Shown here piece after piece: positions 6,494 to 63,451 of a stretch of DNA of 63,451 nucleotides; the first letter of the stretch is position 1, and the number at the start of each line of letters is the position of its first letter. The notes under the pieces are model-generated. The model saw only the letters and a program-made list of their open reading frames with translations, searched no databases and was not told where the DNA came from. Source of the stretch: an uncultured archaeon (GTDB taxonomy: Archaea > Iainarchaeota > Iainarchaeia > Iainarchaeales > VGJJ01); assembly GCA_964363635.1 (NCBI GenBank), contig CAYIIU010000003.1, forward strand, positions 1 through 63,451, given 5' to 3'. Made by a program: the position numbers and the translations under genes.

Positions 6494-6524
6494 TTTTTGA
6501 TTAAACTTTTTATAAAAAAGTTTA
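6494..6524. terminator. palindromic bidirectional oligo-T terminator shared by convergent taw3 and the decarboxylase gene
   Basis: TTTTTGATTAAACTTTTTATAAAAAAGTTTA. The last TTA is the complement of the decarboxylase stop codon (6522-6524). T5-6 runs are present on both strands. Confidence 0.55.
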
Positions 6525-7592
6525 TTCCACGACCACAATCTTAGGAGCCTCGCGCGAGAGATTCCAACTCACTTCGGTGCAGTATGCTCCTGCATTTTCC
6601 ACCGCAATAAGGTCGCCCGTTGACAACGCCGCATGAATCTGCCCCAATTCATCCGAACCGAACATGAGAGGTCCTGCAAGACGGATACTCGTTTTTCGCG
6701 CGCCGGTTTCAGTTAATGCGAAGAAACGGTACGGATTCATGGTGATGCGCGGAAGGACATTAATCCCCGCATCAAGGAGAGCAAACGATTGTCCCTCGAC
6801 ATTTTTGACATGACAGACACGCGCAACTAATATCATCGCGTCTTCGCAAAGGAAGCGGCCGGGCTCCACGTATAACACGCGCGTACGCAGAAACTCTCCG
6901 AGGTGTTCACGAATGAGCACGGCGTATTGTTCTATTTTTTCTTTGCGCTCAATGAGGCTGGTTCGGCCGGGAAGACCGCCGCCGATGTCCACTCCCAACA
7001 GGAAAGGATATTCACGCACCACTTGAGCGAAACGAGAAATGAAATTCTTGTACGAATTGAGCGTTCCGCTCGTGCCCGGGTGGCCGTGGAGCACAACAAC
7101 CTGCAAACCTACTGTTGCGAGATGCTCAATCGTTTTACGAATCTCATTCGGAGAAAAACCAAAACGATGATTATCCATGCGCACGCGCAGACCCACAGAC
7201 AGCGGTTTCATTGGAGAAAGACGCGAGACTTGCTCCGCGTGCGATAATGAATCCAGAATGATGAGGGCATTCTGCGCGAGGGCCTCTTTTATTTCCTCAT
7301 CTGAAGAAGCACAGCTGTTGAAAATTTTCTGCCCAGAAAAGGATTTGACTGCTGCGAGTTCTCGTGCGGAAACGCATTCGAAGCCGGATTCCATTTTGTT
7401 CAACGAATGAAGGATTTTTTCATGAGGATTCGTCTTTACCGAGTAGCAAATGCGTACTTTTTGGGCAATGTTTTGCAGCGCGTCCGCGAGCTCAAAATAA
7501 TGCGTTTGAGAGACGCGGGGCATCAGCACCCAGAAAGGAGTAGGCTGTTCACGTGCAAGTTCAGCCAGCCATTGCTTATCGCGGGCGTTCAT
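6522..7592 (-). CDS. PLP-dependent Orn/DAP/Arg-decarboxylase-fold protein
   Basis: Motifs CYSVKTNPH (PLP lysine), HGHPGT, DIGGGLPG, EPGRFL and AGAYC. At 356 aa it is short for the family. Confidence 0.75.
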   Translation of the reverse strand: MNARDKQWLAELAREQPTPFWVLMPRVSQTHYFELADALQNIAQKVRICYSVKTNPHEKILHSLNKMESGFECVSARELAAVKSFSGQKIFNSCASSDEEIKEALAQNALIILDSLSHAEQVSRLSPMKPLSVGLRVRMDNHRFGFSPNEIRKTIEHLATVGLQVVVLHGHPGTSGTLNSYKNFISRFAQVVREYPFLLGVDIGGGLPGRTSLIERKEKIEQYAVLIREHLGEFLRTRVLYVEPGRFLCEDAMILVARVCHVKNVEGQSFALLDAGINVLPRITMNPYRFFALTETGARKTSIRLAGPLMFGSDELGQIHAALSTGDLIAVENAGAYCTEVSWNLSREAPKIVVVE

Positions 7593-19728: not shown

Positions 19729-19818
19729 CAAACCAAGCAAACTAAACTTTTTAGGAAAAAAGTTTAATCAAAAATGCAGTAGGTTTGCTGGCATGATAAA
19801 CCACGGGTTTACCATGAA
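19729..19818. repeat. composite hairpin repeat, left copy (flanks pilin cluster 2)
   Basis: Modules are CAAACCAAGCAAA, the palindromic element, GTTTGCTGGCATG and ATAAACCACGGGTTTACCATGAA. Confidence 0.6.
19743..19774. repeat. inverted copy of the same palindromic element
   Basis: TAAACTTTTTAGGAAAAAAGTTTAATCAAAAA is the reverse-orientation copy. It sits inside the composite repeat upstream of the pilin cluster. Confidence 0.5.
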
Positions 19819-19944
19819 ATTTGATAAAACGCCTACATAAGGATTTGTGGGCAAACCCTCAACAGTAGTCTGCCGAACGACCAAATGGATAATTTGGGCA
19901 AAATTTCCCCTAGTTTTAAACCTTTTTCGGTCGCATGAGAAAGA

Positions 19945-20127
19945 ATGAATGGCTTTTTACGCGAAAAACGTGCACAGATTTCAATCGAACTCATTATCGT
20001 GATGGCAGCCGTGGTCGCAGTCGTATTACTGCTCGTGACGCAGCTGCAGGATTCGAGCGAAAAGGGAATCAACAAACTCTCCAAGAAAACAAAAGACGTG
20101 TTCGACCAAATCGATGCCATTGATTAG
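19945..20127 (+). CDS. small archaeal type IV pilin (class III signal peptide)
   Basis: MNGFLREKRAQISIELIIVMAAVVAVVLLLV has a basic-Ala/Gly-Gln cleavage context followed by a hydrophobic helix. Length is 60 aa. Confidence 0.75.
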   Translation: MNGFLREKRAQISIELIIVMAAVVAVVLLLVTQLQDSSEKGINKLSKKTKDVFDQIDAID

Positions 20128-42136: not shown

Positions 42137-42340
42137 ACAATCGCGAAAAAAAGAAAAAATACGTCAATATAAACCAACCTTTTGCGAAAAGGTTGATCAA
42201 AAGCCAACGTGGGGATTTACATTGTAAATCCCCGATAGTTGTCCTTCCGAACGGGTTCAGTTCAACCTTTGAATTAGGTTAATCAAATATTGGACACCAT
42301 TCGCGAATGACACCCAAACTTCCGCACGGCCGCAGGTTAG

Positions 42341-54095: not shown

Positions 54096-55070
54096 CTATT
54101 CAATCGACCCACCCAGCTTTTTGATGATAGCATGTTTGTTCTCTTCAATGATTTGATGTATTTCCATTCCACGGTTTTCAAGGCATAAAAAGACAAACTT
54201 GGAGAATTTTTCAAATTCTTTTGATAATTGCACTCGCTCAAGCAGGGCAATGCAGCTCGCACGATTGGAAAGATTGACAATCGCACGCGGGAAACCATTC
54301 TTTTGCAGCATCCAATTTAGGATCTCCCTGCCCGTGCGCCCATTCCCGTCTTCGAAGGGGTGAATCAACTCAAATCGCGCGTGAAACTCGGAAGCAAATT
54401 CAAGCGGGTGCATTTTTGGGCTATTTTTATTCATCCACTCCAACAACTTTTCCATTTCACTTTCAACTTTATCCGCTGGAACTGGCCTTACTTTTGATGC
54501 CGTAATGAACATAGGCCCCAAACGATATTCTCCAGGATGTTTCTCCGGAAATCCATCCAAAATAGCAGCGTTGATTTTTTTGATGGTGCGTTCATTGATT
54601 TCATTAATCCTCTTTGATACCTCTGCTGCTTTTTTCATATTTTCAATTTCGCGTATTTCATCCACTTTCTTTCCGGCAACCGAAGAACCCTTTGTCAGCA
54701 CCAATAAGGCTTCTTGCAGACTTAAAGAATTTCCTTCCACCGAAGCGCTCCCTTGCGCATAACGCACAAATTCATCTTCCTTGAACGATTCAAATCCGCT
54801 GGGAAAAAAATCCGATAGGAGAGAATAGTCTATTTTCAACCGTTCCAAGGACAGAACGTCAGGAAAAGATAATACGCGTGGATGAAACTGCTCCTGCATC
54901 TGTTTAGCCTGTTCCAGTGTCTTCTTTTGGATAAACAATTCAAGCCCTTCTTTCATTCTTCCCAAGGCTTGCCCTTTGTTCCCAAGGAGAACACTTATCC
55001 TCTTCTTTTTCACTCGGTCTTCTAAATAGAAGTAAGGGGTACCCTTGATTCGGCGCTTTGAAATAAACAT
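54096..55070 (-). CDS. Fic-domain protein (probable AMP-transferase, auto-inhibited class)
   Basis: Canonical Fic motif IHPFEDGNGRTGREIL and an upstream SASVEGN that fits the inhibitory (S/T)xxxE(G/N) helix. I use the ATG at 55070 because the track start is TTG. Confidence 0.88.
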   Translation of the reverse strand: MFISKRRIKGTPYFYLEDRVKKKRISVLLGNKGQALGRMKEGLELFIQKKTLEQAKQMQEQFHPRVLSFPDVLSLERLKIDYSLLSDFFPSGFESFKEDEFVRYAQGSASVEGNSLSLQEALLVLTKGSSVAGKKVDEIREIENMKKAAEVSKRINEINERTIKKINAAILDGFPEKHPGEYRLGPMFITASKVRPVPADKVESEMEKLLEWMNKNSPKMHPLEFASEFHARFELIHPFEDGNGRTGREILNWMLQKNGFPRAIVNLSNRASCIALLERVQLSKEFEKFSKFVFLCLENRGMEIHQIIEENKHAIIKKLGGSIE

Positions 55071-55260
55071 AGAATAAGTTAACACCAAAAAGGTTAAAAA
55101 ATGGTATTTTGGCTAAATTTGGTGTTAACCACGTAGAGAAGGGTTACGGGAATTTCCGCTTTTGGAAGACGGGCTCGCTGACGTTAGTGCACAGTGTTGT
55201 TCAAATCACCCATCTTTAGCACACCTCACAGATTATATAGAAAATACTCGTGCTTCCTTT

Positions 55261-55842
55261 ATGGTGATTACCGCAAGAACCATTCTAAAGACCCGGTTCG
55301 GGGATTTTCAAGTGGCGTATCATAAAACAAAATATGGAAGCGCGGTAAGCTTTTCTAAAGGAGACATTTCAATAGGAACACCCGTTGTCCGATTCAACTC
55401 GGCCTGTCTATTTGGAGAGGCATTTCATTCGCTGCATTGCGATTGCGAACACCAACTTACTGAAACAATGCGACTCATAAAAGAGAATGATAGTGGCACA
55501 ATTATTTATCGCTACCAAGAAGGACGAGGCATTGGTCTCGAGAAAAAAATTAAAGCGATGGAAATCGAACGCACACAAAATATGGATACCGTTGAAGCAT
55601 TCAAAAAACTGGGACTAAAAAAAAGCGATTATCGAAACTTTAAAGCGGAAGTCCAAGCATTGAAAGACCTAAAATCAAGCAAAACAATTGAGACATTTTC
55701 GGGAAATCCAAAAAAAATAAAAGCACTTGAGGATGCGGGATACAAAATCACCAAAATATTATCCGGTAAACCATCGGATTTCAGCCCGCGCGCAAAAAAA
55801 GAACGAGCGGCTAAAGAAAAGAAAATGGGATACCACTATTAA
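55261..55842 (+). CDS. ribA: GTP cyclohydrolase II
   Basis: VVRFNSACLFGEAFHSLHCDCEHQL (three Zn cysteines), YQEGRGIGLEKKIKA, DTVEA and GNPKKIKAL are collinear with E. coli RibA as I recall it. Confidence 0.85.
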   Translation: MVITARTILKTRFGDFQVAYHKTKYGSAVSFSKGDISIGTPVVRFNSACLFGEAFHSLHCDCEHQLTETMRLIKENDSGTIIYRYQEGRGIGLEKKIKAMEIERTQNMDTVEAFKKLGLKKSDYRNFKAEVQALKDLKSSKTIETFSGNPKKIKALEDAGYKITKILSGKPSDFSPRAKKERAAKEKKMGYHY

Positions 55843-55985: not shown

Positions 55986-57293
55986 ATGTCTCCCCATACG
56001 TTCAGTCTAGTGGCAGTGTCGGCCCGCGATGAGCGAAAAACCATTGATGTTACGTTCACGAACAACTCACAAAAAAAGACTAAACCATTTCCATTTTTCC
56101 CATCCTTTTACCTCCCCCGCACTTCCACTACTCCGTTTGAAAAAATACTTGAAACCATTTCCAAACCTCCATTGCAAACCATTCCGCACCCGCACAGCAC
56201 GCAAGTCATGTGCGGCACGTGGGGGGAATTGAAAAACGTGGCGCAACAAGTTCATACAAGCACGAATTATTTTCCCCAATTAATCGAACCCGAAAGGCAA
56301 TTCTTACTCACGCAAAATTGGAGATACTTTCAAACATTTGATGAAAAGCTTTCACCGCTCAATGAAGCGTTCATGGATACACTCATTCCGGGATTTGTCG
56401 AACCATTGTACACTACCCTAAACGGCGCACGCGCGCACAACCCAAAAATAGAACAGGAACTCCGTGAGCGCATGGTCGCCAGTCATGAATTATTCCTTCC
56501 CTACACGGATGCACCCATTTCATCCAACGAACAGATAGAAATGATTCTCAACAACTACATGTTCGCCAACCACCGCGCAACACCATTGCAAAAAGGGAAT
56601 TTTACCACGACTTCAATGTGGTCACACGCCCAACGGACCCGCGCAAATGAAATTTTTTCTCAAACACCTATACAAGGGGAAGGAAAATGCGAGTGTTGTA
56701 AACCTACTAACCTTTTTTACGCGTCATTACAAGACGGAAGTATCGTGGACACGCGCGTGACACAAGATGGAGTGTACATTCACACGAACAACATCACTCA
56801 AGGCAACGATTACCACGAAGCACATGCGGGAAAAGAAAAACGCTTGGCGCGACAGCGAGAGTTTGGACTTTCAACCATTCCAATTGGCCCGTTATTTCGC
56901 AACGAAAAAATATCATTATCACTTAACGAGGCGCGGAATGAAATCAAACAAGGAACCCTTGCGGCGGAAATTAATCTGACGAATGCATATTGGAAATGCG
57001 CTAAACAACCATTCGTGTTTGATAAAATTCGCCAAAGTCTTGCCGCGCGAGCACAGCTGCATGACGTGCAACAGAACGCGCTCACGCAACCCTATTTGAC
57101 GCAGTTCCAGCTCGCCTACACGTCTCAAGTCCAGAAGGACCCACTCGTGCAATTGCATACCCTCGCGGCGCGCCGGACGAAGGATTGGGAGTTAAATCTG
57201 GCCAACCACCTGATTTTCCACCCCACCGAATGGAGAGAGGCCACCCACGCCCAACTCTTAGAAAAGGCTATCCTAGGAACTAAGCTACTTTAA
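55986..57293 (+). CDS. hypothetical protein (faint family-B-polymerase N-terminal-like strings)
   Basis: The ATG at 55986 begins a 435-aa ORF. KPFPFFPSFYLP and YFPQLIEPERQFLL resemble PolB N-domain strings by eye only. No polymerase motifs were seen. Confidence 0.5.
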   Translation: MSPHTFSLVAVSARDERKTIDVTFTNNSQKKTKPFPFFPSFYLPRTSTTPFEKILETISKPPLQTIPHPHSTQVMCGTWGELKNVAQQVHTSTNYFPQLIEPERQFLLTQNWRYFQTFDEKLSPLNEAFMDTLIPGFVEPLYTTLNGARAHNPKIEQELRERMVASHELFLPYTDAPISSNEQIEMILNNYMFANHRATPLQKGNFTTTSMWSHAQRTRANEIFSQTPIQGEGKCECCKPTNLFYASLQDGSIVDTRVTQDGVYIHTNNITQGNDYHEAHAGKEKRLARQREFGLSTIPIGPLFRNEKISLSLNEARNEIKQGTLAAEINLTNAYWKCAKQPFVFDKIRQSLAARAQLHDVQQNALTQPYLTQFQLAYTSQVQKDPLVQLHTLAARRTKDWELNLANHLIFHPTEWREATHAQLLEKAILGTKLL

Positions 57294-58350
57294 TTATTTT
57301 TTGCAAATTTTCCACAAACTCTCCGCTATCCACAAAGTAGTTAGGATATGCTTTTCTCAAGTCAGTAGTGGTATCTGCCCCAACTAAAACGACATCATAT
57401 TCTTTTCTTCCTCTAAATCTTTTTTCAGCTTCAGCATAGGCTAGGATTGCTTTTCCTTCCTGGCTTTTTGTATACGACGTAAAGTTCAATTTTTCGCCCA
57501 CAATATCCAGTTCGAGTAAAAAAAATTGCACTTTCTTTTGTTTAGTCTTCATTTCCTGTTCAAAAACTCTTATTGCAGCTCCCCAACCAGTCATTTTTTT
57601 TATTACATTAAGTTCAGCCTCTTTTTTCTTAATTTGTGAGTATAGCTCTTTTTCGTCAGTAGGGGTATTTGGAACCGGTGCACAGCCTTCCATTTTGGCA
57701 AAAGCAGTGCTTACTAATCTAAAAAATTCCATCCACTCTTCTTGCCCTTCATTAGACTTTATGGCTTGCCGAGTGAAGAAATCCACTGTTTCAATAGCTG
57801 TTGCCCAAATGTGTTGCAATTTTGATCTTATCTGAATTTCAACAAGCAGACCATTATACTCTTTCTTGCCTTTATCACTAAAATATTTGTAAATTATATG
57901 AATACTTCTGTAACCATCTTGTTTCGGGTTTTCCACATAGTCTTTCTCTCCGACTCGCTTATGCTTCAAATCCCCTTTTAGATAATAATCCTGATAAAGT
58001 TTTCTTACTTGTGAAACGTTTGCCAAAACTGCTCTGCACCCACCAATATCTTGCATTTGAGACAATTTCATCGTCGGAGGTCTGCCGTTATAGCTTCGTT
58101 TTAGTTTATTGATAATTGCAGGAACACGCTTCAGCCGCTGTGCGGTAAATGCATTTTTATCGACGCTGGTTGCTTTGCTTTTTAGTCTGATTTTGAATAC
58201 ATGCATCGGGTAACTGTGGATAGCCCTCCAATTATCTAAAATTTCGATTGCCGTATTTTTTTCTTCTTCGGAGCTAGATTCACTAATCAAAATATCGCCT
58301 GCACGGTTAATCCGTTCTTTTGAATACCCCTTTGGTTTTGTCCAAGCCAT
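57280..58350 (-). CDS. stand-alone RelA/SpoT-family nucleotide pyrophosphokinase (SAS/toxSAS-like) with a C-terminal extension of about 140 aa
   Basis: Synthetase motifs are in order: QRLKRVPAIINKLKR, MQDIGGCRAV, DGYRSIHIIY and VEIQIRSKLQHIWATAIE. No HD hydrolase domain is present. Confidence 0.85.
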   Translation of the reverse strand: MAWTKPKGYSKERINRAGDILISESSSEEEKNTAIEILDNWRAIHSYPMHVFKIRLKSKATSVDKNAFTAQRLKRVPAIINKLKRSYNGRPPTMKLSQMQDIGGCRAVLANVSQVRKLYQDYYLKGDLKHKRVGEKDYVENPKQDGYRSIHIIYKYFSDKGKKEYNGLLVEIQIRSKLQHIWATAIETVDFFTRQAIKSNEGQEEWMEFFRLVSTAFAKMEGCAPVPNTPTDEKELYSQIKKKEAELNVIKKMTGWGAAIRVFEQEMKTKQKKVQFFLLELDIVGEKLNFTSYTKSQEGKAILAYAEAEKRFRGRKEYDVVLVGADTTTDLRKAYPNYFVDSGEFVENLQKIIKVA

Positions 58351-58583
58351 TATACATCAACGTCGGCGCATTATTTAAACCTTCATTTTGCGCGGTTTTC
58401 TAAAAGTCACTTTTTTGGCTTAAAATTGGTTTAAAAGGCATTTAATGTCATTTTACAAAAATAGCCGACTTTTCCAAAAAACAATTTGATGTTTTGCGCG
58501 GTTTAAGTATGCGACCGAATAATTCTTTTTCTCCCTTCTCCAAAAGGCTGTTTTATATAGGTTTCCCAGCGATTTTCATCTGT

Positions 58584-58790
58584 ATGGCAACCATTACTCG
58601 CTTTGAACAAACGCGAATCATCGGAGCCCGAGCGTTACAACTCGCTTTCGGCGCCCCCGCGTTGCTCACCAACAAGAAAGTACTCTCTCCCTACGATTTG
58701 GCCAAGGCCGAATTCGACGAAAAAGTCATCCCCCTATCCGTTATCCGAAACCTGCCCAACGGACAGCACATTCGATTAGAGGTGAACTAA
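58584..58790 (+). CDS. rpoK: DNA-directed RNA polymerase subunit K (Rpo6)
   Basis: MATITRFEQTRIIGARALQLAFGAPALL. The track start at 58494 is TTG. Confidence 0.88.
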   Translation: MATITRFEQTRIIGARALQLAFGAPALLTNKKVLSPYDLAKAEFDEKVIPLSVIRNLPNGQHIRLEVN

Positions 58791-58792
58791 CT

Positions 58793-59116
58793 ATGGGTAA
58801 ATCCGTTCCTAAAGGAATCAAAAGCAAAGCCAACATTATCCTCAAAGAAATGCCCGCGGATTTCAATGAAAGTTTCGAAAACAATAAGTTGAAAGTCAAA
58901 GAACTCAAATTACCTTTTTCAAAGTGGACCACGAATGTGATGGCCGGATTCATGACGCGCCACCACAAGAAAGCACGCAAAGCCGAAGAAAAGAAAGAGA
59001 ATGCTCGCAAGAAAACTGAACTCGTGATGAAAGAACATCCCGATATGAAGAAAACTGCGGCACCCGTGATGCATATGCGCATCGAAAAGCAGGCTGAAGA
59101 AGCTGTTAAGGAATAA
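58793..59116 (+). CDS. rps17e: 30S ribosomal protein S17e with a K/E-rich C-terminal extension
   Basis: MGKSVPKGIKSKANIILKEMPADFNESFENNKLKVKEL...NVMAGFMTRH matches the eS17 N-terminal pattern. Confidence 0.75.
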   Translation: MGKSVPKGIKSKANIILKEMPADFNESFENNKLKVKELKLPFSKWTTNVMAGFMTRHHKKARKAEEKKENARKKTELVMKEHPDMKKTAAPVMHMRIEKQAEEAVKE

Positions 59117-63396: not shown

Positions 63397-63451
63397 GGCC
63401 CCGTAGCTTAGTCTGGATAGAGTGTCGGGCTTCGGACCCGAAGGTCGGGGG
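63397..63451 (+). tRNA. tRNA-Arg (anticodon UCG), 3' part cut by the window edge
   Basis: Folded by hand: acceptor GGCCCCG, U8, D-arm GCUU/AGUCUGGAUA/GAGU, anticodon stem UCGGG/CCCGA, loop CU-UCG-GA, variable AGGUC, and the start of the T-stem GGGGG. A/T-rich boxes lie at 63351-63381 upstream. Confidence 0.8.

Follow-up and report, generated by a model that had tools for sequence, protein, structure and literature searches.

CapRel is among the best-understood bacterial immune proteins that directly sense a viral structural protein, and to our knowledge all experiments on it have been carried out in bacteria. Here we describe a CapRel-like gene in archaeal DNA, an open reading frame (ORF) of 356 amino acids with an ATG start, called on the minus strand at 57280-58350 of a 63,451-nucleotide stretch of contig CAYIIU010000003.1 (hereafter the window, meaning the whole stretch that was analyzed). 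The closest described protein, CapRel(SJ46), pyrophosphorylates tRNA in vitro; its crystal form is an open state, AlphaFold predicted a closed one, and mutagenesis has shown that R79 and R116 coordinate ATP and that Y155 is the G-loop tyrosine (PMC9712102). More broadly, the CapRel and PhRel types of toxic small alarmone synthetase (toxSAS) block translation through pyrophosphorylation of tRNA CCA ends (10.1101/2021.04.30.441581; PMC9712102). RelA/SpoT homologue (RSH) enzymes have been reported to be rare in archaea (PMC3153485), in agreement with the initial annotation of this gene, and the presence of translation-inhibiting toxSAS subfamilies in "even some archaea" has been mentioned in a passing remark (Kurata et al., 10.1101/2021.04.30.441581).

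Sequence, Fold and Functional Residues of the CapRel-Like Protein

The initial annotation rested on four synthetase motifs, which do lie in order along the translation (QRLKRVPAIINKL at residues 71-83, DIGGCR at 101-106, GYRSIH at 146-151 and EIQIRSKLQHIWA at 171-183), and the sole significant Pfam match of the protein is RelA_SpoT (PF04607, E = 1.7e-17, residues 71-184). The absence of a hydrolase domain was likewise borne out, as Pfam and NCBIfam profile searches detected no HD, TGS or ACT domain. When we searched the sequences of solved structures in the PDB, the protein matched CapRel(SJ46) over its full length (7ZTB_A/9ERV_A, E = 5e-45, query residues 9-350 against chain residues 14-367), whereas housekeeping small alarmone synthetase (SAS) enzymes covered only residues 67-191, with weak similarity to RelQ/RelP/YjbM in both the profile and the PDB searches, and (pp)pApp synthetases were not among the matches. 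The PADLOC model PDC-S33, for which the PADLOC library gives no curated cut-off, was also matched over the full length: residues 1-353 aligned with positions 1-342 of the 349 in the profile (402.6 bits, E = 4.3e-121). The models of the housekeeping enzymes were far from reached: the YjbM equivalog (NCBIfam NF053588) has a cut-off of 320 bits and the protein scored 58, and the long-RSH model spoT_relA (TIGR00691) has one of 499 and the protein scored 15. Clustering with housekeeping SAS enzymes, accompanied by a hydrolase elsewhere, had been singled out in the initial annotation as an outcome that would speak against its proposal, as had substitution of the catalytic residues, which is considered below.

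The AlphaFold2 (AF2) model, for which a 145-sequence alignment served as input, has a mean predicted local distance difference test score (pLDDT) of 92.1 and a predicted template modeling score (pTM) of 0.89. In a Foldseek search with this model, 7ZTB/9ERV were the only full-length matches (template modeling [TM] score 0.67-0.69, 362-367 columns, E ~3e-23), and RelQ/RelP-type SAS structures ranked next, spanning only approximately 183 columns. The global root-mean-square deviation (rmsd) between the AF2 model and the 7ZTB/9ERV crystal form is approximately 10 Å over the full-length alignment, which is what a differing orientation of the two domains would give. Both this deviation and the short helix over residues 336-339 would agree with a closed conformation of the protein.

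We transferred the functional residues of CapRel(SJ46) to the window protein through a MAFFT alignment. Around the active site, A77, R79, R116 and Y155 correspond to A70, R72, R106 and Y147; in the C-terminal part, V338, L339, A341, A351, Y352 and Y355 correspond to V321, L322, G324, A334, Y335 and Y338. None of the catalytic residues is substituted, and the sole change among the residues validated by mutagenesis in CapRel is from A341 to Gly324, a conservative one as both are small. The mapped positions are invariant or nearly so among the 145 homologues: no variation was seen at R72 and Y147, and next to none at R106 and in the YPNY motif. A70, V321, L322, G324 and A334 belong to the intramolecular interface.

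The C-terminal stretch of approximately 140 amino acids had been set down as being of unknown function. This needs revision, since it is homologous to the anchor helices, the pseudo-zinc-finger domain (pseudo-ZFD) and the YXXY region of CapRel. In the AF2 model, three helices (within residues 204-259) are followed by a short strand (261-264), by strands at 274-282 and 287-294, a helix at 295-311 and a strand at 318-324, and the model ends with a short helix (336-339) and the terminal helix. The pseudo-ZFD thus comprises three main strands, the second and third of them separated by a helix, as in the published CapRel topology, and because residues 261-324 contain no Cys and no His, the term "pseudo" zinc finger applies to the archaeal protein too. 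It is the match in anchor and pseudo-ZFD topology, in the alignment and in the YXXY motif that identifies the last 140 residues as the antitoxin/sensor region of CapRel. The conservation profile along the protein also agrees with CapRel, conservation being lowest in the pseudo-ZFD, where pairwise identity is 0.55-0.64 within the archaeal clade described below and 0.19-0.26 in bacteria.

Membership in the CapRel family is thus established at the level of sequence and of fold, with the validated residues intact except for the change of A341 to Gly. The proposal of a fused, CapRel-type toxSAS made in the initial annotation is supported by the full-length alignment to 7ZTB/9ERV, the AF2/Foldseek match and the retention of the catalytic and autoinhibition residues, and we consider it likely that this ORF encodes an archaeal member of the CapRel fused toxin-antitoxin family that works by a CapRel-type mechanism.

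The Gene Is a Single-Gene Insertion With Sharp Boundaries

The CapRel-like gene has a GC content of 0.373 compared with 0.472 in the remaining window. It converges on the ORF at 55986-57293, which we refer to as the orphan gene, and overlaps it by 14 nt; rpoK and then S17e adjoin it on the other side. The A/T-richness, the convergence and the overlap had all been recorded in the initial annotation, together with the view that the gene forms a single-gene islet, and comparison with related contigs shows that the islet is an insertion (Table 1). Homology between the window and the related contig L094 stops at 57268 and restarts at 58543, which delimits an insert of 1.27 kb. The gap in L094 holds a run of N (a scaffold gap) as well as a different repeat element; L094 was therefore rejected as an empty site, and two other contigs, L096 and L097, were used in its place. 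In these, the order is HerA, further genes, the orphan gene, rpoK, S17e, further genes and Rad50, with one additional ORF before Rad50 in L097, and the gap between the orphan gene and rpoK is a clean 74 bp in L096 and 48 bp in L097, with a CapRel remnant in neither.

The boundaries are also sharp among copies of the gene residing in unrelated contexts. The homology between such copies, including those in pairs that are approximately 94% identical, starts at the most distal promoter motif, 130-195 bp upstream of the ATG, and stops approximately 0-36 bp from the stop codon. We conclude that the CapRel-like gene entered a Diapherotrites/Iainarchaeum chromosome as a single-gene insertion of 1.27 kb, and that the transferred unit consists of the ORF and approximately 190 bp of promoter. 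The insertion altered the last codons of the orphan gene, the C-terminus of which reads ...LGTKLL* in the window, ...LGY* in L081 (a syntenic contig that retains the CapRel-like gene) and ...LGA* in L094. Neither terminal inverted repeats nor a recombinase was found at the cassette. A candidate target-site duplication, AAAAGGCT, is present at both junctions in the window and is unconvincing; it may be native sequence, because the near-identical CAAAAGGCAGT also follows the stop codon of the orphan gene in L094.

A Conserved Promoter With Direct Repeats Travels With the Gene

Upstream of nearly all archaeal-clade copies of the gene we found a promoter module composed of ACCGCGCAAA(A), a gap of approximately 6-8 nt and then TTTAAATA or TTTATATA. 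Counted from the ATG, the motif begins at about -45 and the TATA box lies at -29/-30. One to three further copies of the motif, in the same orientation, occur near -99 and -131. The sequence TTTAWAWA begins at -29/-30 in 59 of 65 upstream regions, and this position of the TATA box implies a leaderless or near-leaderless mRNA. The module occupies 58351-58542 in the window, and the same module is present in loci L001-L051, in L081 and in 35 metagenome loci.

The association between motif and gene is strong. The exact 11-mer is found only in the two copies listed in Table 1 and nowhere else in the 63 kb, and the 7-mer CGCGCAA is approximately 53-fold enriched in the 220-bp upstream regions, where its density is 7.27 per kb compared with 0.136 per kb in the remainder of those loci. 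Its occurrences are 70 forward and 2 reverse, and it precedes only 2 of 23 bacterial homologues. The 9-mer form lies upstream of a CapRel-like gene in 82 of its 105 occurrences in the 1.32 Mb of DNA examined. The CCGCGCAAA repeats number 2-4 per promoter, share one orientation and are spaced near whole helical turns. Their spacings cluster at 31-33, 53-55, 84-88 and 106-108 nt in a count that includes metagenome-derived loci chosen by the motif pattern itself, and when phased at a period of 10.7 bp they give a resultant length of 0.76, a value inflated by relatedness, or of 0.47 with distinct spacing values only. The repeats are kept from DPANN to Methanoperedens despite saturated synonymous sites.

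Searches with the pattern of the whole module gave no matches in viral contigs. Among the first 120 metagenome matches, 35 preceded a CapRel-like gene and 6 were located at the ends of contigs, and no other gene recurred behind the module as an alternative cargo; for the remaining 79, the simplest explanation is a match by chance or within coding sequence. Thus, an archaeal promoter with phased direct repeats of CCGCGCAAA upstream of the TATA box travels with the gene, and its conservation extends across phyla. Because a single-gene unit crossing phyla cannot depend on a host-specific regulator, the CCGCGCAAA repeats may act as operators to which the CapRel-like protein itself binds, for which the autoregulation of toxin-antitoxin systems offers an analogy. 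We put forward only as a speculation, with the odds rather against it, that the archaeal CapRel clade is a self-contained, self-regulating mobile defense cassette in which the repeats serve either as such operators or as recognition sites for mobilization. If true, either role would be new for toxSASs and for archaeal defense genes.

Distribution of the Archaeal Clade

Homologues of the CapRel-like protein numbered 4528 at E <= 1e-5. The best 120 of these 4528 are 353-385 amino acids long (most of them 354-364) and, apart from the window's own protein, 68-88% identical to it, and all of the named ones belong to a DPANN lineage or to a metagenome-assembled genome (MAG) filed as an unclassified "archaeon." When each GTDB species was represented by a single genome, the scan separated archaeal homologues at 55-80% identity, which form a clade, from bacterial ones at 39-46%, with a gap between the two; with the closest relatives included, identities within this tight clade range from 55 to 88%. 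Its members come from Iainarchaeum, Woese-, Pace-, Micr-, Aenigmat- and Nanoarchaeota and from Methanoperedens/Methanosarcinales. The clade is a small part of the family, making up a handful of the 1464 family representatives found at E <= 1e-30 in a library clustered at 50% identity.

The CapRel-like protein is 68-76% identical between phyla, while HerA, which is under similar constraint (see below), is 54-60% identical within Diapherotrites alone, and the higher identity of the former points to inter-phylum horizontal transfer. In a neighbor-joining (NJ) tree, the archaeal clade forms one group beside the bacterial sequences, and phyla are mixed within it, Methanoperedens for example grouping with Micrarchaeota. 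In most loci, the AT content of the gene exceeds that of its flanks. Taken together, these sequence comparisons indicate that the members of a compact clade have spread by horizontal transfer among DPANN phyla, Methanoperedens/Methanosarcinales and, in rare cases, bacteria.

Some members carry bacterial labels ("Patescibacteria" and "Gammaproteobacteria"). One of these, L036 (CAYRHT010000001.1), is truly bacterial, with trigger factor adjoining the gene. L041, binned as "Patescibacteria," encodes an RpoD of archaeal type and is probably archaeal DNA placed in the wrong bin, and a Woesearchaeota copy (L043) is approximately 94% identical to the L041 copy at the DNA level. The copy in L049 is basal, stands beside a C5-methylase/HaeII restriction-modification (R-M) pair and lacks the archaeal promoter motif. 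The only close match in IMG/VR (73% identity) lies on L092 (GVMAG-S-1041346-124, 17.7 kb), which is filed as a giant-virus MAG. Its neighboring genes (CARF-HTH, HEPN, STAND/Schlafen-like helicase, MazG, RadC and YhcG) look like those of a prokaryotic defense island or mobile element rather than of a giant virus, and we rejected viral carriage of the gene in this case.

Host, Neighboring Genes and Selection

The neighbors of the CapRel-like gene in the window are NurA, HerA, a Fic protein, GTP cyclohydrolase II, the orphan gene, rpoK, S17e, Rad50 and an Orc1/Cdc6-like ATPase. The named homologues of its HerA come from Candidatus Diapherotrites/Iainarchaeum or unclassified "archaeon" MAGs, and an identical CapRel-like protein occurs on contigs from the 0.1 µm fraction of Hainich groundwater. 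The host archaeon belongs to Diapherotrites/Iainarchaeum and comes from Hainich groundwater. A second ORF of 356 amino acids in the window, at 6522-7592, is unrelated to the CapRel-like protein.

The syntenic contig L081 (67 kb) allowed selection to be estimated. Amino acid identities between it and the window are 97% for RpoK, 95% for EF1b, 93% for S17e, 92% for HerA, 88% for the CapRel-like protein, 87% for NurA, 78% for the orphan protein and 68% for Rad50. The dN/dS ratio (Nei-Gojobori) of the CapRel-like gene is 0.058, compared with 0.051 for HerA and 0.070 for NurA, and by domain it is 0.033 in the catalytic core (residues 66-200) and 0.108 in the pseudo-ZFD, all of these values being approximate as dS is close to saturation. 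At 1.27, the dS of the CapRel-like gene is similar to that of its neighbors. These comparisons indicate strong purifying selection on a gene that is functional and has diverged along with its neighbors in this lineage.

We looked for a partner of the CapRel-like gene both in the window and in related loci. The orphan gene is restricted to its lineage, with only 23 homologues in 5.8 billion proteins (the sole named match being from Diapherotrites), and has no match in Pfam, PADLOC or other family libraries. Several of its homologues lie on contigs that agree in length with contigs bearing HerA homologues, and it occurs together with HerA homologues in L094, L096 and L097, directly upstream of rpoK in all three, and tblastn found no homologue of it in 80 CapRel loci; it is not a partner of the CapRel-like gene. 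No conserved partner, antitoxin or hydrolase recurred when all window neighbors were compared with the 80 loci by tblastn, and no conserved partner recurred in de novo clustering of 1876 neighbor ORFs or in PADLOC and Pfam scans of 150 immediate neighbor proteins. The absence of an adjacent antitoxin-like gene, as stated in the initial annotation, therefore holds in the window, and neither an antitoxin-like gene nor a hydrolase was found beside the gene there or in the 80 related loci.

Several other features of the region were noted. The Fic-domain protein (54096-55088, minus strand), two genes from the CapRel-like gene, matches the SoFic single-gene defense model (E = 1e-31), and a stand-alone GTP cyclohydrolase II-like gene (55162-55842, plus strand), not present in L081, adjoins it. 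The segment between HerA and the orphan gene is variable, containing these two genes in the window and three unrelated genes in L081, and on this ground the stretch from HerA to rpoK may be described as a small variable (defense) islet. An intergenic repeat of approximately 110-150 nt with a conserved core and hairpins is present at 42165-42325 and 19800-19960 of the window (both on the minus strand) and at 9336-9485 of L094. Of its 54 predicted pairs, 17 have compensatory changes when the three copies are compared. The element gave no Rfam match at E <= 1 and no tRNA call, and may be an unannotated small RNA or a repeat of this lineage resembling a miniature inverted-repeat transposable element (MITE). 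ARAGORN called no tRNA genes in the 63-kb window, and Rfam only a 3'-truncated tRNA at the window end (63397-63451).

Table 1. Coordinates of the CapRel-like cassette, its parts and the flanking host genes in the window.
Feature	Position	Strand	Basis or remark
Orphan host gene, lineage-restricted, 435 aa	55986-57293	+	Last codons extend 14 nt into the cassette
Whole inserted cassette (promoter region and ORF)	57269-58542	-	Breaks of homology to L094; not in L096/L097
CapRel-like ORF, fused toxSAS toxin-antitoxin, 356 aa	57280-58350	-	Homology; AF2/Foldseek
toxSYNTH (RelA/SpoT synthetase) domain, residues 1-200	57751-58350	-	PF04607; residue map to SJ46
R72	58135-58137	-	Aligned with SJ46 R79
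R106	58033-58035	-	Aligned with SJ46 R116
G-loop Y147	57910-57912	-	Aligned with SJ46 Y155
Anchor helices joining toxin and sensor domains, residues 201-260	57571-57750	-	AF2 helices 204-220, 233-247 and 249-259; alignment to SJ46 anchor
Pseudo-zinc-finger (sensor/antitoxin) domain, residues 261-324	57379-57570	-	AF2 topology; published SJ46 description
YXXY neutralization motif, Y335-P-N-Y338	57337-57348	-	Aligned with SJ46 Y352/Y355; near-invariant in 145 homologues
TATA box TTTAAATA	58372-58379	-	22-29 nt upstream of ATG; read from sequence
Proximal cassette motif ACCGCGCAAAA	58386-58396	-	Just upstream of the B recognition element (BRE)/TATA
Distal cassette motif copy	58492-58502	-	106 nt from the proximal copy, near the upstream cassette end
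rpoK (RNA polymerase subunit K/Rpb6)	58584-58790	+	Flanking host gene
S17e	58793-59116		Next after rpoK

Proposed Mechanism and Alternative Explanations

By homology to CapRel(SJ46), the C-terminal pseudo-ZFD would in the resting state be folded back onto the N-terminal RelA/SpoT-type synthetase domain, with the YPNY (YXXY) turn wedged between R72 and R106 so as to occlude the ATP adenine site (autoinhibition). A virus-encoded protein bound to the sensor domain, for which the bacterial paradigm is the major capsid protein, would keep the enzyme open; the open enzyme would move pyrophosphate from ATP onto tRNA 3'-CCA ends, aminoacylation and translation would halt, and the infection would abort. 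The tRNA substrate, the toxicity, the autoinhibition, the viral trigger and the defense phenotype are all inferred here by analogy with bacterial CapRel.

Several observations weigh against this antiviral reading. Within the archaeal clade, the sensor domain (pairwise identity 0.55-0.64, with 0.70 for the whole protein) varies less than it does in an enterobacterial pair (47% as against 70%; PMC9712102). The domain is under purifying selection (omega ~0.11), and its conservation fits a conserved trigger or a role outside defense as well as it fits an arms race. The neighbors of the gene in the other archaeal loci are mostly housekeeping genes and not defense islands. We know of no virus of these hosts. 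Finally, no sequence signature divides tRNA-modifying from nucleotide-modifying toxSASs (Kurata et al., 10.1101/2021.04.30.441581), so that family membership is the sole basis on which the substrate is assigned.

Alternatively, the archaeal clade may share the CapRel fold without being an antiviral sensor, and act instead as a selfish addiction/stabilization cassette or as a growth-arrest switch sensing a conserved cellular or symbiosis-related protein. DPANN archaea are episymbionts, the clade also occurs in the possible host lineages Methanoperedens/Methanosarcinales, and the Methanoperedens and Micrarchaeota copies cluster in the NJ tree; moreover, the cassette brings its own promoter and spreads as a self-contained unit, mostly amid housekeeping genes, and its sensor domain is fairly conserved and under purifying selection. 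On the other hand, all characterized fused CapRel proteins are abortive-infection defense proteins, the full-length match to PDC-S33 is to a defense-candidate model, some loci have SoFic, R-M or defense-island neighbors, and patchy presence in close relatives combined with low GC is typical of defense genes. We consider a function other than antiviral sensing unlikely.

Doubts about the substrate lead to a different alternative, namely a toxic nucleotide pyrophosphokinase of the FaRel/Tas1 type that makes (pp)pApp and drains ATP. The catalytic fold is identical in such enzymes, and the lack of a clear signature among tRNA-using toxSASs also leaves room for this alternative. The homology of the window protein, however, extends over the full length of an enzyme that pyrophosphorylates tRNA in vitro, the tested members of the CapRel and PhRel clade specifically inhibit translation, and (pp)pApp synthetases bear strongly differentially conserved motifs (10.1101/2021.04.30.441581) and did not appear among the matches to solved structures, all of which makes a nucleotide substrate quite improbable. 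Less probable still, to the point where we give it very little weight, is a housekeeping SAS producing (p)ppGpp in an archaeal stringent-like response. Such an enzyme would account for the RelA_SpoT domain and for the weak RelQ/RelP/YjbM similarity, but not for model scores so far below the cut-offs or for the restriction of the SAS structures to the N-terminal half of the protein. Furthermore, a hydrolase gene lies beside the CapRel-like gene in none of the loci examined, the gene is an AT-rich insertion missing in close relatives rather than a core gene, and RSH enzymes are rare in archaea to begin with.

Comparison With Known Systems

A 2026 survey found DPANN to be enriched in compact single-gene defense systems, and in SoFic, AbiE and single-gene PDC candidates (PMC12988326). 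Neither CapRel nor PDC-S33 is named in the main text of the archaeal or of the aquifer defense survey, nor in the available part of the supplements of the archaeal one. In a literature search we found neither an archaeal CapRel clade nor its promoter cassette described, which is weak evidence as the search lay outside most subscription journals. Ultra-small archaea are largely devoid of CRISPR-Cas and R-M, and the CapRel-like gene provides a concrete and compact candidate for their antiviral immunity. It may also serve as a handle for finding the viral triggers, and hence the viruses, of DPANN. The cassette is also a clean example of a minimal transferable defense unit, with an ORF, approximately 190 bp of promoter, sharp boundaries and no recombinase.

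Among the described systems, PDC-S33 matches the protein over its full length and is itself a computational candidate without a description in the PADLOC library. The bicistronic toxSASs (M. tuberculosis CapRel:ATcapRel, the phage Phrann PhRel Gp29:Gp30, FaRel2 and PhRel2) share the homologous toxSYNTH domain, and those of the CapRel and PhRel clade inhibit translation via tRNA CCA pyrophosphorylation; their antitoxin is a separate adjacent gene, whereas that of the window protein is fused and has no conserved neighbor. RelQ/RelP (YjbM/YwaC; PDB 5DEC and 6EWZ) have the same catalytic fold over approximately 180 residues, with a target-normalized TM of about 0.7, but these (p)ppGpp makers are approximately 200-230 amino acids long, lack the C-terminal sensor/antitoxin domain and are not mobile insertions.

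The closest likeness is to CapRel(SJ46) (Salmonella prophage; PDB 7ZTB and 9ERV; Zhang et al. 2022, 2024). The two proteins are of similar length (356 and 373 amino acids), share the domain order of toxSYNTH, anchor helices, pseudo-ZFD, YXXY and C-terminal helix as well as the ATP-coordinating arginines, the G-loop tyrosine, the motif YXXY and the residues at the interface, and are each encoded by a single ORF without a separate antitoxin, with the sensor domain as the least conserved part in both. They differ in that sequence identity is only approximately 31%, the window protein has Gly in place of A341, and the sensor domain varies less in the archaeal clade. The window gene, moreover, belongs to an archaeal (DPANN) host and has an archaeal promoter with a TATA box and a leaderless arrangement, and it is chromosomal amid housekeeping genes, whereas the SJ46 gene resides in a prophage. 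What was already known is thus the CapRel family itself, and what is new is a compact archaeal clade that crosses phyla and a sharply bounded cassette with a repeat-bearing promoter.

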